DNA of 60,855 bases, taken from NCBI GenBank assembly GCA_044375625.1, contig JBILMH010000005.1, forward strand, positions 1 through 60,855. Reading direction: 5' to 3'. The notes under the pieces are model-generated. The model was not told the DNA's origin. It saw nothing but the letters and a program-made list of their open reading frames with translations, and made no database searches. The translations under genes and the position numbers were made by a program. Positions within the stretch are counted from its first letter, which is position 1; every line of letters starts with the position of its first letter. This DNA is from Alphaproteobacteria bacterium (GTDB lineage Bacteria; Pseudomonadota; Alphaproteobacteria; CAISOG01). Shown piece by piece: positions 17,820 to 25,593 of the stretch.

Positions 17820-17858
17820 TCTATACCTCAGAGTCTATACCTCAGAGTCTATACCTCA
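17820..17858. repeat. 14-bp tandem repeat (about 2.8 copies) over the hisD stop codon
   Basis: TCTATACCTCAGAG repeated twice plus a partial third copy. Confidence 0.9.
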
Positions 17859-19153
17859 AATTTTGGGGCGCGGCATTCGACGGCGCGGGCGTGCGCCTCT
17901 AACCCCTCTAACCGTGCCAGGGCGGCAATTTCCCGTGCCAACTGGCCTGGTAAGGTTGAAGGCAAGGATTGGGTGTATGCCGCCGCGCCATGATCGGTGA
18001 TAAAGGTTTTGGGCTTTAGAAAATTGCTGACCGACAGGCCAGCATGGAAGCGCCCCGACCCGTTGGTGGGCAGGGTGTGGTTGGGGCCCAGCCCATAGTC
18101 GCCCAACACTTCGGCGGCGCGGGCACCGACAAAAATACCGCCATATTGGGTGCATTGCTGCCCCCAATGCGATGGGTTTTCGGTCATGATTTGCAGATGT
18201 TCTGGCGCCAATTGGTTGGCCAGCTGCACCGCCTGTTCCAAACTAAGCTGTACCATGGCACCCTGGGACAATGCCGCGCGCGCGGTTGATTGATTCGGCT
18301 GCGGCAGGGTGGGCAGCTGGGCGGCCAGGGCATCTTGCACGCTGGCCAACAAAGCGGACGATGGCGTCAATAGGGTGACAATCGCTTCGGTATCATGTTC
18401 GGCCTGCGCCAACAAATCGGCGGCGATCCAGGCGGGATTGGCACTGTCATCGGCAATAATCAGCAATTCGGATGGACCCGCCAGAAAATCGATGCCGCGC
18501 TGATTGGCGACCATTTGCTTGGCCGCCGCCACCCATTGATTGCCTGGGCCAACAATCATGTCACAGGGGTCAATCAGGCCGCCACCAAAGGCCAGGGTGG
18601 CAATCGCCTGCGCCCCGCCAATCGCCAACACCGCATGCGCGCCCGCAATCGCCGCCGCCGCCAACATCAGGGGGGCGGGGTTGGGCGAGGCCAAGGTAAT
18701 CTGCCGCACCCCCGCAACCTGGGCGGGAATGACCGTCATCAACACGCTGGACACCAGGGGATAGCGCCCGCCCGGCGCATAGCACCCAACCCGTTCAATC
18801 GGGATGTGGCGCACCCCCATGCTTAGCCCTTCTGCGCCAGCGGGCATGTCAAAATCCTGATACAGCTGGCGTTGGCGGGCGGCAAAGCCGCGAATCCGTT
18901 CCGCCGCGGTTTGCAACAGCTGGCGCGGCTCATCGGCCAGATTGGCCAGGGCGGCTTCACAGGCGGCGCGATCATACAGCATCGGCTGTCCCGCAACCCA
19001 TCCATCCCATTGCGCGGCATAGTTTTCGACCGCGGATCGGCCGTGGCGACGAACATCCTCAAGAATCTGTTGCGCCCCCGCCAACACTTCAGCGGGCAGC
19101 GGGTTTGCGGCGCGTGCCAGCAGGCTGGCGGCATCCTTGATAGGCATGATCAT
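17849..19153 (-). CDS. hisD: Histidinol dehydrogenase
   Basis: GCYAPGG, GPGNQWV, AGPSE, DLLAQAEHD, APEHL, GPNHTLPT, EGLEAHA; ATGA overlap with the upstream fusion gene. Confidence 0.96.
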   Translation of the reverse strand: MIMPIKDAASLLARAANPLPAEVLAGAQQILEDVRRHGRSAVENYAAQWDGWVAGQPMLYDRAACEAALANLADEPRQLLQTAAERIRGFAARQRQLYQDFDMPAGAEGLSMGVRHIPIERVGCYAPGGRYPLVSSVLMTVIPAQVAGVRQITLASPNPAPLMLAAAAIAGAHAVLAIGGAQAIATLAFGGGLIDPCDMIVGPGNQWVAAAKQMVANQRGIDFLAGPSELLIIADDSANPAWIAADLLAQAEHDTEAIVTLLTPSSALLASVQDALAAQLPTLPQPNQSTARAALSQGAMVQLSLEQAVQLANQLAPEHLQIMTENPSHWGQQCTQYGGIFVGARAAEVLGDYGLGPNHTLPTNGSGRFHAGLSVSNFLKPKTFITDHGAAAYTQSLPSTLPGQLAREIAALARLEGLEAHARAVECRAPKFEV

Positions 19154-20430
19154 GATGTGGCCTTTCTGTCGCCCCCACGGCGGGCAATTTTGCGGGAACG
19201 GCTGTTCAGTTCGTCCCAAACAGCTGACCAGGGAATGTGCTGTTGCGCCAGCTTGACGGCGGCAAAATACAAAACATCGGCGGTTTCGGCGACAATCTCC
19301 TGCACGGAATTGGCCATCGCCAGCTCGCCCCCCTCCTCCTGAATCTTGGCGTTTAACAGCCCCGGTTCGGCCAGCAATCGTTGGGTATAGGATTGCGCAT
19401 CCTCCGCCTGCATCGCACGATCTATCCGCTGCGCCAGCGCGCTGATACCGCCATTTGTGCCAAAGTCGGCCTCAAAACAGCTGGCTGTTCCCAAATGGCA
19501 AAAGCCGTCGCCCAGTTGTTGCACCGTGAATTGCAGGGCGTCGCGATCGCAATCCACCGCAATCCGCAACAGTTTCTGGCGGGCGCCTGAGGTTTCCCCC
19601 TTACGCCACAGGCCGCCGCGTGATCGGGAATGGTAAATGCCCGCCCCCTCAGCCAACGCCGCCTGCAAGCTTTCGCCATTGGAATAGACCAATCCCAGCG
19701 CCTGGTGGTTGCTATCCACCACCACAGTTGGCCACAGGCCGTCGGCACGGTCGGAAATCATCATGGCCGCCAAACAATCGGCGATGGTCAATTTGCCCGT
19801 ATACAGCGCCATCCCAACCTGGGCATCCACCCCCATCCTGTCCAATTCGGCAATCTGTTGCGCGGTGGTAATGCCGCCCGCCATGGTCAGCTTAACGGTT
19901 GAGGCCGCCGCCAAAATCGGTGCCACCGCCGCGGTGTCAAAGCCGCCCATGGTGCCTTCGATGTCGATGTTGGTTACCAAAAAGCCGCCAACCCAATCGC
20001 GCAGCTCAGCCATGCGGGTCAGGCCAGAGGTTTCCTGCACCGTTTTCCACCCCTCAACCGCTACCTTGCCGCCACGCATATCCACCGCGGCCATCACCCG
20101 ATCCCTGGGCAATTGCGACAAAATGGCCGGCTCAGCCTTAGTGCCCAAAATGACCTTCACCGCCCCCGCGTTCAGCCAATCGCTGGCCGCCTCAAGGCTG
20201 CGAATCCCGCCACCAACGCGACAGGGGGCATGACGGCACAGGGTTTTGATCAGATCGCGGTTATCGCCCTGCCCCATGGCGGCATCCAGATCAATCACCG
20301 CCACCTCACCCGTCATGCCAAATTGTTTGGCCAGGGCAATCGGATCCTCAGCCGCCTGCAACGCCATTTTTTCACCCTGTACCAGCTGAACGGCTTTGCC
20401 ATTCATGATATCTATTGATGGGATAATCAC
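19150..20430 (-). CDS. hisA/hisIE: HisA-HisI-HisE fusion protein
   Basis: N-terminal IIPSID..GKAVQL...VGGGIR barrel; middle SRSR..LWRKGETSG, DCDRD, FCH..C; C-terminal SYTQRL...KIQEE..E...ETADVLYF. Confidence 0.9.
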   Translation of the reverse strand: MIIPSIDIMNGKAVQLVQGEKMALQAAEDPIALAKQFGMTGEVAVIDLDAAMGQGDNRDLIKTLCRHAPCRVGGGIRSLEAASDWLNAGAVKVILGTKAEPAILSQLPRDRVMAAVDMRGGKVAVEGWKTVQETSGLTRMAELRDWVGGFLVTNIDIEGTMGGFDTAAVAPILAAASTVKLTMAGGITTAQQIAELDRMGVDAQVGMALYTGKLTIADCLAAMMISDRADGLWPTVVVDSNHQALGLVYSNGESLQAALAEGAGIYHSRSRGGLWRKGETSGARQKLLRIAVDCDRDALQFTVQQLGDGFCHLGTASCFEADFGTNGGISALAQRIDRAMQAEDAQSYTQRLLAEPGLLNAKIQEEGGELAMANSVQEIVAETADVLYFAAVKLAQQHIPWSAVWDELNSRSRKIARRGGDRKATS

Positions 20431-22359: not shown

Positions 22360-23393
22360 GGGGAAACCTTTGTTATAGCGTTCATCAGGGTGGCCAGATC
22401 CTGTTCATTTAAGGGTACACCAATGCGGACACAATGGGCGATATGGGGATCATTGGGAAAGCAACGCACCGAAATCCCGCGATCCCCCAAGGATTCGAAC
22501 ATCCTTTGGGCTTGTTCCGCATTTTTGCAGGCAAAGAATACAAAATTTGCCTGGGATGGCCAAACAGAAAAACCAAGCTTGGTCAGGGCGGATTGCAACA
22601 GGGTGCGGTTGGCCTTAATCGCCGCGATGGCCGTATCAACCTGATGCTTTGCGGCCAAAAGCTTTAACCCCTGGTTGATGCTGGGCTGGGAAATGCCATA
22701 GGGTTGCGCCACCTTTTGCATGGCCAGCAGCAGATCGGCATGGCGGCTAAGGGCGTAACCCAACCGCAATCCCGCCGCGCCATAAGCCTTGCTGAAACTT
22801 TGCACCACCACCGTGTTGGGCATGGCCAGCACGGCATCGGTGATATCCTGATCGCTATAGGCCATGTACACCGCATCCAGCACGATTAAGGCCTGGGGGG
22901 CATGATCACGAATGCGGGCGATGACATCAATGGGCACCACCTGCCCCGTTGGATTGTTGGGGGAGGTGACCAGAACAATTCGGGTTTTGGCATCAATGCT
23001 GTCAACGATAGCCTGTTCGGGAAAGGCGGGATCAATCCATGGCACGCAACGCATATCACCGCCCGCCATCGCCACATAGCGCTGAATCATCGGAAAGGTT
23101 GGCACGGCGGTTACCAAATTCCCACCTTCCTCCATCATCGCCAGCATGATTTGCAACAGGGCATCATCCCCCCCCGCGGTGGGGTGAACCATGGCCATGG
23201 GCAGCCCTAGATTGTTGGCCAACGCATCCCGCCAGCCATCAATTTTGGGATAGGAGCCGGCGCAATCACCCAGGATCGCTTGGAAATCAGGAATCACATC
23301 GCGCAGATCCAGCTGGGGGGGACGTTTAGGCCGTGGCGGGGCATAGGGCGCACCAAGGCGGGCAACCCGTTCGGCAAATTGCAACGTCATCAA
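22356..23393 (-). CDS. hisC: Histidinol-phosphate aminotransferase
   Basis: SPNNPTG, DAVY, SFSKAYGAAGLRLGY, SQANF; operon context. Confidence 0.9.
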   Translation of the reverse strand: MMTLQFAERVARLGAPYAPPRPKRPPQLDLRDVIPDFQAILGDCAGSYPKIDGWRDALANNLGLPMAMVHPTAGGDDALLQIMLAMMEEGGNLVTAVPTFPMIQRYVAMAGGDMRCVPWIDPAFPEQAIVDSIDAKTRIVLVTSPNNPTGQVVPIDVIARIRDHAPQALIVLDAVYMAYSDQDITDAVLAMPNTVVVQSFSKAYGAAGLRLGYALSRHADLLLAMQKVAQPYGISQPSINQGLKLLAAKHQVDTAIAAIKANRTLLQSALTKLGFSVWPSQANFVFFACKNAEQAQRMFESLGDRGISVRCFPNDPHIAHCVRIGVPLNEQDLATLMNAITKVSP

Positions 23394-24256
23394 AGCACCA
23401 CTTTGGCCAAATTGGTGATGATAATGTCACAGGCGCCCGCGTTCTTAAGGGCAGGGATCAGGGCAATCACTTGCTTTTTTTCCACCACCGATTTGATGGC
23501 ATAGCCCTGATCGCCCAACAGGTTGGCAACCGTCGGTTGCTTCATCGCTGGGAAAATTTGCATCACCTCAGGCAATTTTTCGGGCGGCACATTGGCTTCG
23601 ACCATGACGCGGCGGCGCCCCTCCAACACCGATTGCAACACCAAACAAAAATCCTGAATCTTTTTGGCTTTTTGGGGGTCTTGCATGGCCTTACGGCTGG
23701 CATACAGGCGGGTGGAGGACTGAAAAATCTTTTCCACAATCGTCAACCCATTGGCGTCCAGGGTTGCCCCCGTTGAGGTGATGTCGAGAATATAGTCGGC
23801 ATCCTCACTAGGAAACACCTCGGTCGAGCCAAAGGATCGGACAAAGGTATCTTGGCGCCCCCCTTGTTGCTGCCAATCGGCGGTCAGCTTAGCATACTCA
23901 CTGGCAACCGTCAGCTGGCGGGGGGGCAGCGCGCCATCCTGAAGCAATTTGTTGGGGGCGGCCACCACCAACCATACGGGATCCAACGCTGTATCCAACA
24001 GCTCCACCAGATTGGCGCCCAATTCCTTAACCCAATCCGCGCCGGCAAAGCCCAAATCGCGCGTGCCCATATCCAGCATTTCAATGATGTTTTGCGGCTT
24101 TAGCATTTTGGCCTCCATCGCGGCGCCGCTGATGGTTGGGCGATAGGCGCGGCTGGCCGTCCGCACGATGACGCCGGCATCCGCCAACAGCCGTTCGACG
24201 CCATCGAACATCCGCCCCTTTGGCAGTGCTAAGCGTAAGGATTGCTCTGAACTCAT
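23390..24256 (-). CDS. hisG: ATP phosphoribosyltransferase, long form
   Basis: LALPKGR, DLGFAG.DWV.E, GSTEV, DITSTGATL, C-terminal regulatory domain LKNAGACDII; ATG follows GAGGGGG. Confidence 0.95.
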   Translation of the reverse strand: MSSEQSLRLALPKGRMFDGVERLLADAGVIVRTASRAYRPTISGAAMEAKMLKPQNIIEMLDMGTRDLGFAGADWVKELGANLVELLDTALDPVWLVVAAPNKLLQDGALPPRQLTVASEYAKLTADWQQQGGRQDTFVRSFGSTEVFPSEDADYILDITSTGATLDANGLTIVEKIFQSSTRLYASRKAMQDPQKAKKIQDFCLVLQSVLEGRRRVMVEANVPPEKLPEVMQIFPAMKQPTVANLLGDQGYAIKSVVEKKQVIALIPALKNAGACDIIITNLAKVVL

Positions 24257-24259
24257 GGT

Positions 24260-24393
24260 TATTTCCCCCTCAAATGTTGGTGCCGTCAAAACCTTGCTGG
24301 CGGGGAATATCTGCAAAAACCATGAAACGCCTAAACAGAGTCACCGCCATATCAAAAGCCCTGGCGGCGGTTGCGTAAAAATTAAAGCCGCCA
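24260..24393 (-). promoter_or_regulatory. Putative his attenuator with alternative pairings and an anti-SD segment
   Basis: mRNA segments UGGCGGC (24393-24387), GCCGCCA (24368-24362), UGGCGG (24349-24344) and UAUUCCCCGCCA (24309-24298), the last complementary to the SD region GGGGGAAAUA; no U-tract terminator seen. Confidence 0.6.
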
Positions 24394-24552
24394 AAGCCCA
24401 TGATGCTGCGCACCATGATGATGCACATGATGATGCACATGATGATGCACATGATGATGCACATGATGATGCACATGATGATGCACATGATGATGCACAT
24501 GATGATGCAACAGATGGATGCAATGCTGGCAAATTGGCGTGTTCTGAATCAT
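24382..24552 (-). CDS. hisL: His operon leader peptide, 56 aa with 28 His (absent from ORF track)
   Basis: Hand translation MIQNTPICQHCIHLL(HHHV)7HHHGAQHHGLWRL*; same strand, 125 nt upstream of hisG. Confidence 0.82.
   Translation of the reverse strand: MIQNTPICQHCIHLLHHHVHHHVHHHVHHHVHHHVHHHVHHHVHHHGAQHHGLWRL
24415..24508. repeat. Perfect 12-bp tandem repeat, about 8 copies
   Basis: ATGATGATGCAC units on +, reading CAT CAT CAT GTG on -. Confidence 0.97.
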
Positions 24553-24822
24553 GATGCCATGCTGATACAGATGATTTCCCTTGTCAAGCTTCAGGCATCC
24601 GACTCAACGTCCAAATCCTTAACCCAATCCGCGCCGGCTGTTCCCTGCATCGTCAATCTTGACTATTGGCGATCCATACTGGGCTATTCATAAATGCTCA
24701 GCCCATCTTCATTCCTTTTGACGAAACAATCAACCGAAAAAGGAACAGGAGCCTTGACTTTAACCTTTTCTCAGGATAACCTTAGACCCAATTGCCAAAA
24801 AACTTAAGAACCGGAGGAAAAA

Positions 24823-25593
24823 ATGGCACAAGATCATCAGAACAATTTTTGGAGATACAAAGCAGAAGTTGGATTTTGTGGCGCTTTATTAGCACTATCA
24901 GCAGCCGCATGCAGTGGTAACCATCAAACTTCCCCACAACCACCTTCAGCAAACCCTTGCCCGAACATTTCACCAAAAGTTTTTTTAAATGATCGTGCAC
25001 TTAGAGCTGACAGTACAAACAGTTTTTTAAAAAGACGTTTGCCAGAATACAGCGTAAGATTGATCGCCGAAGAAAAACGTACAGGTGCGATTTTGGAAAG
25101 TGGAGATAGTACATGCACATACATCGTAGACCGCGCAGCCCCATTTATTGTTAACGTAACTTATAGTGACGCTGCATCGTCCAACCTGTTTACCCACACA
25201 TACGATTATGATGGAGAATTTTTAAATAGTGGTAACCATAAAATTGCCCCACAACCACCTTCAGAAAACCTTTGCCCGAGTATTCTCCCAAGAGTTTTTT
25301 CAGACATAGCTTCTAAGGGTGTAACACAATCTATTAATCAAAAAATCGATGGAATTGCTTTAAGAAAATTTCCAAGACATGAATCTGGAGCAATAGGCAG
25401 GGCTTTCGACAACAGAATATATACAGGTGCGATTTTGAACGGTGGAGATGTTCAATGCACATACCTCGTAGACCGCGCAGCCCCATTTATTGTTAACGTA
25501 ACTTATCGTGGCGCTGCATCGTCCAAACCCTTACAGTTTATCCGCACATACGATTATAATGGAAAATTTTCAGGAGAACGACCTACCAGATAA
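24823..25593 (+). CDS. AT-rich hypothetical lipoprotein with an internal domain duplication
   Basis: GGAGG RBS, lipobox-like AAAC, two repeats SGNH..PQPPS.N.CP...TGAIL..GD..CTY.VDRAAPFIVNVTY...TYDY.G.F. Confidence 0.75.
   Translation: MAQDHQNNFWRYKAEVGFCGALLALSAAACSGNHQTSPQPPSANPCPNISPKVFLNDRALRADSTNSFLKRRLPEYSVRLIAEEKRTGAILESGDSTCTYIVDRAAPFIVNVTYSDAASSNLFTHTYDYDGEFLNSGNHKIAPQPPSENLCPSILPRVFSDIASKGVTQSINQKIDGIALRKFPRHESGAIGRAFDNRIYTGAILNGGDVQCTYLVDRAAPFIVNVTYRGAASSKPLQFIRTYDYNGKFSGERPTR

Follow-up and report, generated by a model that had tools for sequence, protein, structure and literature searches.

A histidine-rich leader ORF ahead of the his operon

The window, by which we mean the whole 60,855-nt stretch of contig JBILMH010000005.1 that was analysed (GenBank assembly GCA_044375625.1, Alphaproteobacteria bacterium), carries on its minus strand a histidine biosynthesis (his) operon and, just upstream of it, a short open reading frame (ORF) rich in histidine codons, which is the subject of this work. 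The operon runs in the order hisG-C-B-H-F-(A-I-E)-D, with its last gene, hisD, bringing it to position 17849, and Pfam confirmed HisG, HisC, IGPD, HisH, HisF, HisA+PRA-CH+PRA-PH, and HisD. The first gene, hisG (23390..24256, minus strand, ATG at 24256), encodes the long form of the enzyme with a HisG_C domain, as identified by Pfam. The window forms contig 8 of a metagenome-assembled genome (MAG) of 69 contigs, 1.6 Mb, and 97% completeness. Its nearest neighbours among public records are MAGs that bear the labels 'uncultured Holosporaceae bacterium' and 'Alphaproteobacteria bacterium', and the sequencing runs that contain this DNA are lake-water metagenomes. The host organism is an uncultured freshwater alphaproteobacterium.

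The leader ORF (24382..24552, minus strand), recognized by translation, by codon count, and by orthologous 28-aa ORFs in two congeners, lies upstream of hisG on the same strand, its stop 125 nt from that gene. Read from 24552 to 24382, it opens with ATG and closes with TAA after 56 codons, yielding the peptide MIQNTPICQHCIHLL(HHHV)7HHHGAQHHGLWRL. Histidine accounts for 28 of the 56 codons, all of them CAT and none CAC, and valine GTG for 7. Because histidine makes up 2.4% of codons in the long ORFs of this genome and CAT 58% of histidine codons, such richness goes beyond chance composition, and the 28 codons are not independent of one another since 21 of them derive from amplification. An initial annotation, made from the letters alone, had proposed this hidden ORF with its 28 CAT codons in a (HHHV)7HHH array, and translation, codon counting, and repeat detection found it correct in every detail.

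These histidine codons are concentrated in a tandem array of eight perfect copies of TGCATCATCATG (24414..24509, minus strand), read in frame as (HHHV)7HHH and delimited by Tandem Repeats Finder (TRF), copy counting, and congener alignment. Each junction between copies creates a GTG valine codon, and the same letters can alternatively be parsed as seven perfect CATCATCATGTG units from ORF nucleotide 46 followed by CATCATCAT. The TRF row (24414-24522, period 12, 9.0 copies, score 193) was the top one among 63 in the window, and genome-wide the array ranked 1st of the 10 that passed our filters (period ≤30, copies ≥3.5, matches ≥90%). A 21-nt array pattern had no second occurrence in the 1.6-Mb genome. 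Alignment to the congeners revealed a clean 84-nt insertion in the window, such that TGCATCATCATG occurs once in the congeners versus eight times here. Since all copies are identical, the amplification appears recent, and because the genome encodes both MutS and MutL it is not a general repeat mutator. The unit is self-complementary when G-U pairs are included, and the array as a whole folds at -30.4 kcal/mol. Among the genome's perfect short-period arrays, an 8-nt x 7 repeat (TAGGAGAC) at G000:C26:27089-27144 ranks second by score.

Searches at the level of the peptide returned little. Pfam matched no family to the leader peptide, and a protein search with all 56 residues gave 490 word-sharing candidates and none at E≤0.01, where the query is of low complexity and short ORFs are seldom called. 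The exact peptide was likewise absent from a collection of 15 billion proteins, in which short ORFs are seldom called as genes. Gene callers overlook such leaders, and both negatives therefore carry little weight.

Orthologous leaders and conservation of the leader region

Two congeners with HisG proteins 97% and 96% identical to that of the window possess the same leader ORF, with 28 aa, 7 histidines, and no array, ending in ...IHLLHHHGAQHHGLWRL before the stop. The ORF keeps its start and stop codons throughout the window, both congeners, and a further allele from lake run X8 (see below). The region is also unusually well conserved. From the leader stop to the hisG ATG, 121 of 123 alignable positions are identical in either congener, and the leader ORF minus its array matches at 86/87 and 83/87, versus only 260/288 and 255/288 for hisG third codon positions (spacer against third positions, binomial P 3e-4 and 5e-5 for the two congeners). 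Further upstream, identity to the congeners is 92% from a TTGACA hexamer to the leader ATG and 42% beyond it, where the congeners carry a tRNA gene and unrelated DNA, such that similarity stops abruptly at the hexamer. About 20 nt upstream of that hexamer, a 31-nt piece of hisG coding sequence (24016-24046) recurs at 24608-24638 with 94% identity. This duplicate looks like a rearrangement scar because it sits exactly where congener similarity ends, and it predates the array because the X8 strain also has it.

Leaders of the same kind were found at greater distance. An alphaproteobacterial MAG (locus L049; HisG 70% identical over 128 residues) has the short leader MINKPCIDHHCRHA, with 3 histidines before its stop, and MAGs of Phycisphaerales/Planctomycetales with HisG identity of 50-57% have leaders with 3-7 histidines followed by GC hairpins and T runs. 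In a class-level sample of 18 Phycisphaerales-type loci, centred on one Phycisphaerales MAG plus two other such MAGs, a histidine-rich short ORF (3-7 His) lies 176-323 nt upstream of long-form hisG in 14 (L063, L065, L066, L070-L079, and L083, of which L083 is doubtful and the scripted start of L074 is too far upstream). Another set of 14 loci gave histidine leaders in 7, two of them by eye, with L038, L041, and L042 counted in both sets. Four loci that were read closely (L038, L039, L041, and L042) show a leader, then a GC hairpin and a T run. Across the 18 other leaders that were read, each has 3-7 histidines and none is expanded, so the description of the window's leader as greatly amplified, made from its own letters, holds against 28 histidines here.

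The distribution is patchy. A close long-form HisG occurs in only 10 of 401 sampled genomes of the class, no His-run short ORF was found at the seven such loci that were read (L004, L005, and L050-L054), and a search among relatives of genome G404 matched 3 of 61 genomes (G404 and two already seen) and yielded no new leader. In a HisG tree, which omits L049 because its sequence is partial, the HisG of this genus clusters with that of a Phycisphaerales MAG (L039; support 94/86, below the starred level) and apart from those same seven alphaproteobacterial HisG proteins, whose loci have no such leader peptide. In a third congener (G002, locus L022), hisG is only 25% identical and lies beside an ORF that by eye resembles a cytochrome oxidase subunit. 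The tree grouping and this divergent hisG together suggest that hisG may have been horizontally transferred with its leader.

Conservation of this kind also bears on whether the 56-aa peptide might itself be the product and act in trans, for instance by binding metal, as the small histidine-rich metal-binding proteins of Helicobacter do. The peptide is 50% histidine and has a C-x-x-C motif; its orthologs, however, have only 7 histidines in 28 aa and lack the first cysteine, so that histidine richness is not what has been conserved. Together with the missing Pfam match, and with a position and RNA structures that fit a cis-acting leader, this makes a trans-acting peptide extremely improbable.

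Promoter-like elements and alternative hairpins

The start of the leader transcript can be placed provisionally from a recurrent geometry. In the window, a -35-like hexamer TTGACA (24582..24587, minus strand), the point at which congener similarity begins, is followed after 17 nt by a -10-like hexamer CAGCAT (24559..24564, minus strand) and, 6 nt later, by the leader ATG. As a pattern match only, 7 of 8 sequences share a -35-like TTGAnn, a spacer of 16-17 nt, a -10-like nAnnnT, and 5-9 nt before the leader ATG, while the eighth (L039) is cut by a contig end. Because no Shine-Dalgarno (SD) sequence lies between the -10-like hexamer and the ATG, the leader transcript is predicted to be leaderless, which suggests that the ORF starts at, or a few bases from, the 5' end of the predicted transcript.

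Downstream of the array, three segments of the minus strand could pair in alternative ways. Region 2 (GGGCTTTGGCGGC, 24387..24399), placed by constrained folding, overlies the last codons G-L-W-R-L and would form the 5' arm of an antiterminator. Region 3 (GCCGCCAGGGCTT, 24356..24368) can pair with either region 2 or region 4 (TGGCGGTG, 24342..24349), the latter being the 3' arm of a terminator-like hairpin; past this arm the sequence reads ACTCTGTTTAGG and falls short of a clean T tract. All 10 of the 10 pairs of the 2:3 helix form in the window and L049 alike, the three changes between them being one-sided and compatible with pairing and the 20-nt loop being the same. At L049 the 3:4 helix makes a clean terminator: 10/10 pairs and then a T-rich tail. 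Folding energies in the window are -21.1 kcal/mol for the 2:3 hairpin and -15.5 kcal/mol for the 3:4 hairpin.

To these segments we applied constrained partition-function folding with ribosome footprints, in seven states of the window and in locus L036. With the ribosome on an HHH triplet or anywhere in the array, 12.7 expected 2:3 pairs formed and the 3:4 helix was gone. When it occupied the stop codon or the final pair of histidine codons, region 2 was masked, 2:3 pairs fell to 0, and the 3:4 hairpin formed, with 6.9 expected pairs for the ribosome at the stop. In these models, then, hairpins 2:3 and 3:4 are mutually exclusive and would be chosen by ribosome position. Orthologous leaders, conserved leader RNA, and these ribosome-position-dependent hairpins support the identification of the ORF as the leader peptide of the his operon, which is what the initial annotation had called it.

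Two other arrangements were considered and set aside. In a translational model, a chain of hairpins (2:3, 3:4, 4:5, and 5:SD) would free the SD of hisG upon stalling, but constrained folding did not support it. According to the folding, the hisG SD (GAGGGGGAA, 24263..24271, minus strand) pairs with TTCCCC at 24302-24307 at any ribosome position, with a mean unpaired probability of 0.23 in all seven window states, and in L036 the change runs opposite to the model (unpaired 0.62 with the ribosome at the stop versus 0.34-0.38 when stalled). The second arrangement would make the 2:3 hairpin itself the terminator; the logic would then be inverted, the T run is inconstant, being TTTT in the window, TTT in the congeners, and TTTC in X8, and the L049 homologue is clearly an antiterminator.

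Array copy number in lake metagenomes

Array alleles in nature were sought in public metagenomes, for which assembled contigs from 4 of 20 listed runs (X1, X3, X6, and X8) were read; such contigs cannot reveal copy-number variation within a sample. Of the 20, X16, X17, X19, and X20 are recorded as RNA and X18 carries the label 'RNA?' but is probably DNA; the evidence comes from covered parts of the four runs that were read. The contigs of X1, X3, and X6 reach into the array from either flank and end 20-30 nt inside it, while the repeat cycle is held by separate contigs of 36-42 nt. The Logan assemblies presumably use k=31, and broken contigs accompanied by cycle contigs are how a 31-mer graph treats perfect repeats. 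By our reasoning, a closed 31-mer cycle implies at least 4 array copies in each of these three runs. Cycle contig depths in X1 are 46 and 38.7, and from the logic of de Bruijn graphs this ratio would be the 6:5 expected for 8 copies, with X1 possibly being the source sample. The runs whose contigs contain array k-mers are dated 2020 and 2024.

The fourth run held a different allele. A single X8 contig (depth 14.9) joins 24413 to 24498, omitting exactly 84 nt and thus representing a 1-copy allele, and it runs on into upstream DNA of the window type with 4 of 329 letters different and no indels. Because X8 has this allele in near-identical DNA, copy number differs between close strains, within what is probably a single species. 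The allelic states seen are thus 1 copy (X8 and two congeners) versus at least 4 (X1, X3, and X6), with 8 as assembled, so looking to related genomes for copy-number variation, as had been recommended when the ORF was first described, did find it.

One measurement sits badly with a uniform count of eight. Depth per array copy in X1 is about 7.7, versus 13.4-18.8 in the flanks, or roughly half, and X3 and X6 are similar. The deficit could reflect technical bias or mixed copy numbers, which the depths cannot tell apart, such that the count of 8, or its uniformity, is provisional. This bears on whether the array, or at least its copy number, is an assembly artefact, a concern strengthened by the 69-contig state of the MAG, by the difficulty that a 96-nt perfect repeat poses for short-read assemblers, and by Logan contigs that break inside the array and cannot count its copies. 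However, both junctions and a closed 31-mer cycle are present in three runs, one of them possibly the source sample, and by the reasoning above the cycle requires at least 4 copies and the ratio of its arcs in X1 fits 8. As three runs hold the array, the array itself is unlikely to be an artefact, and we judge this explanation very unlikely overall.

Searches of metagenomes by sequence added little. A scan with the 5' flank of the array returned 0 stretches, and one with two array units returned 6 stretches, of which 0 were near his genes and 0 had similar flanks; neither scan was informative on copy number. The 12-nt unit of the array is also repeated in tandem about 7 times at 7917-7988 of L059, an AT-rich metagenome contig of 69 kb, where the surroundings are unrelated and the 400 nt read contain no his genes.

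A probable ribosome-mediated attenuator with an amplified sensor

Taken together, we think it likely that the leader is a ribosome-mediated attenuator of the his operon whose amplified array would likely bring derepression at a milder shortage of charged tRNA-His. In this scheme, a ribosome finishing at the stop codon would cover region 2, leaving region 3 to pair with region 4 in the terminator-like hairpin. When charged tRNA-His is scarce, the ribosome would stall on the histidine codons and leave region 2 free, and the 2:3 helix would then exclude 3:4 such that hisG-D would be expressed. We infer from the letters and the folding the translation of the ORF, its sensing of histidine, the termination output, and the direction of the array's effect. 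The ancestral leader had 7 histidines, and in this lineage a 12-nt segment with one HHH triplet was amplified in frame from 1 to 8 perfect copies, whether by tandem duplication or by slippage, adding 21 histidine and 7 valine codons and making a 96-nt self-pairing RNA. That a 12-bp unit preserves the frame was anticipated in the initial annotation and agrees with the intact ORF.

Several results weigh against this scheme, at both its input and its output. A stricter promoter scan of the region gave 0 sites, such that promoter and start site rest on pattern matches. In the window 2 mismatches leave the 3:4 helix with 8 of 10 pairs, so that it is weaker than at L049; it ends in the tail described above, and a terminator scan of 24100-24900 returned 0 terminator-like sites, so that a canonical intrinsic terminator was not recovered there; the output step may thus be weak or different. 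The free RNA is dominated by the 2:3 helix, and the untranslated default state is therefore predicted to be ON. Rfam gave 5 chance-level matches and 0 His_leader over 23800-25200 at E≤10, and tRNA only at 7 related loci at E≤1; L038, L039, L041, and L042 were likewise without an Rfam match.

The same features raise the possibility of a vestigial attenuator, in which the terminator has decayed in the genus and a leader with no remaining regulatory role merely tolerates its array. The weaker 3:4 helix with no T tract, the empty terminator scan, and the free RNA dominated by 2:3 would all fit. Yet in both congeners conservation is higher in the leader ORF and the 123-nt spacer than at hisG third positions, and the ORF with its start and stop is intact in the window, the congeners, and X8. 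Over the first 40 kb of the window, moreover, terminator-like sites show no enrichment relative to shuffled sequence (21 vs 26.0±5.7 and 20 vs 25.8±5.4), so canonical terminators may be uncommon in the host organism. Because of the conservation figures, a vestigial attenuator is improbable.

If the leader does work as a ribosome-mediated attenuator, the race between ribosome and polymerase would now depend on about 26 rather than 5 histidine codons, and derepression would be expected at a much milder shortage of charged tRNA-His, with higher basal read-through. Theory and older genetics make an attenuator's sensitivity depend on how many regulatory codons it has and how densely they lie. Elf and Ehrenberg describe sensitivity as rising when these codons become more numerous and make up a larger fraction, and give this as the reason why the his attenuator outdoes that of trp in sensitivity (PMC1183508). 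We built a toy race with 15 codons/s and 50 nt/s (PMC1183508), in which the polymerase must not yet have made region 3 by the time the ribosome arrives four codons ahead of region 2. Half-maximal read-through came at about 3 His codons/s for the 1-copy allele (5 His/20 codons) and about 9.5 His codons/s for the 8-copy allele (26 His/48 codons), such that half-derepression required a ~1.6-fold slowing of histidine decoding with 8 copies vs 5-fold with 1. Basal read-through rose from 0.002 (1 copy) to 0.04 (8 copies). Counting against these figures, the model uses E. coli rates and ignores both pausing and the array hairpin of -30 kcal/mol, a structure that could slow the ribosome or pause polymerase. 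With that qualification, the model suggests that amplification probably makes the operon switch on at a milder histidine shortage, so that it would derepress sooner and more strongly. The two natural alleles, with 7 vs 28 histidines in nearly identical backgrounds, constitute a ready-made test pair for attenuator theory.

The main rival explanation, and a real if minority possibility, is that the leader is genuine and the 8-copy array a recent slippage accident, neutral or mildly harmful and with no regulatory role under selection, in a hairpin-prone segment and not yet removed. Identical copies mean that the array is young, an ancestral 1-copy allele persists in the near-identical X8 strain and in two congeners, 0 of 18 other leaders are expanded, and the self-complementary unit gives an array that folds strongly. 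Set against this, array k-mers in three runs from 2020 and 2024 point to an allele that endures in nature, the genome has MutS and MutL, the array outscores every other short-period array there among the 10 passing the filters, and 21 added regulatory codons are unlikely to be without effect given the toy model and, as far as the part consulted goes, the theory behind it (PMC1183508).

Tentatively, the array could instead be an evolvable gain control, in which gain or loss of 12-nt units would let lineages or subpopulations of this small-genome bacterium shift the histidine threshold for turning on the his operon, as a graded rheostat and unlike the ON/OFF switches of known contingency loci. 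A stronger version, proposed in the initial annotation and regarded by us as rather doubtful, is a contingency-type tunable locus in which in-frame 12-nt gain and loss are frequent and maintain, under selection, subpopulations with different set points for the his operon. The perfect 8-unit tract, the differing copy numbers of close strains (1 vs at least 4, with 8 as assembled), and the halved per-copy depth of X1, X3, and X6, which a mixture of copy numbers could produce, agree with it, as does the precedent of a repeat-variable attenuating leader peptide at the pil1 locus of Streptococcus gallolyticus, at least from the portion of that report we drew on (PMC3894217). On the other hand, the documented alleles fall into just two states with nothing intermediate among the contigs, contigs are blind to variation within a sample, and the depth deficit may be technical. 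Should the tract be unstable, simple repeats would tune the set point of a metabolic operon, beyond the ON/OFF switching of surface genes.

Comparison with known leader peptides

The classical counterpart is enterobacterial hisL, which has 7 histidine codons in a row. The likeness drawn initially to hisL holds for the mechanism, since in both systems (hisL is represented in Rfam by His_leader, RF00514) a short ORF with a run of histidine codons precedes hisG and ribosome position selects between an antiterminator and a terminator hairpin, here by prediction. It does not hold for the family. The covariance model of RF00514 gave no match here at E≤10, the 28 histidine codons are interrupted by valine rather than being 7 consecutive ones, no SD precedes a start predicted to be leaderless, and the terminator lacks a T tract and is non-canonical. 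Nor is a stable 1:2 hairpin predicted here, so the untranslated state would be ON, unlike the trp-type design.

Outside Gammaproteobacteria, comparative genomics has revealed lineage-specific histidine leaders that precede his operons and carry both antiterminator and terminator hairpins in the Bacillus cereus group, Peptostreptococcaceae, and Erysipelotrichales, with three to five consecutive histidine codons and no match to RF00514, and the sections of that report available to us describe no tandem amplification, unlike the array here (PMC9413887). Leaderless regulatory small ORFs (sORFs) have precedents too. According to the parts of the sources that we used, Deinococcus deserti has sORFs rich in the cognate amino acid with AUG at the 5' end of the transcript (PMC4007540), and the polycysteine sORFs of mycobacteria are leaderless regulatory leader peptides (10.1101/834739). 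Transcription starts were mapped in those systems, whereas the leaderless start here is deduced from promoter-like hexamers.

For the array, the nearest precedent is the frame-shifting GCAGA repeat of pil1, where gain or loss of repeats in the leader-peptide gene alters read-through of a downstream terminator (PMC3894217, from the excerpted account). The 5-nt unit of pil1 shifts the frame, changes leader length, and acts as an ON/OFF phase switch of the pilus, whereas the 12-nt unit here keeps the frame and adds sensor codons to an amino-acid attenuator, and a graded change is therefore expected, unlike at pil1. Our literature search found no paper on histidine leaders in alphaproteobacterial or Phycisphaerales MAG lineages, and none in which an amino-acid attenuator has had its regulatory codons amplified in tandem. 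The leaders of the window, L049, and Phycisphaerales thus apparently form an undescribed group outside the Rfam His_leader family, a family of apparently leaderless histidine-leader attenuators upstream of long-form hisG that Rfam does not cover and gene callers miss.

Other features of the locus and genome

Within the his operon, one 426-aa ORF (19150-20430, minus strand) fuses HisA (His_biosynth), PRA-CH (HisI), and PRA-PH (HisE). Four more ORFs of 63-128 aa cross the array, at 24168-24554 and 24400-24693 on the plus strand and at 24270-24500 and 24341-24532 on the minus strand, and they look like by-products of the repeat. A divergent 256-aa ORF (24823-25593, plus strand) belongs to no Pfam family, has a lipoprotein-like N-terminus, and by eye in its translation contains two internal repeats of roughly 100-115 aa. 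The sole other strongly histidine-rich frame in the genome is a 351-aa open frame on the minus strand of contig G000:C23, which near its N-terminus has 12 histidines, then an aspartate, then 6 more histidines, and which, being membrane-protein-like, may be a candidate metal transporter.

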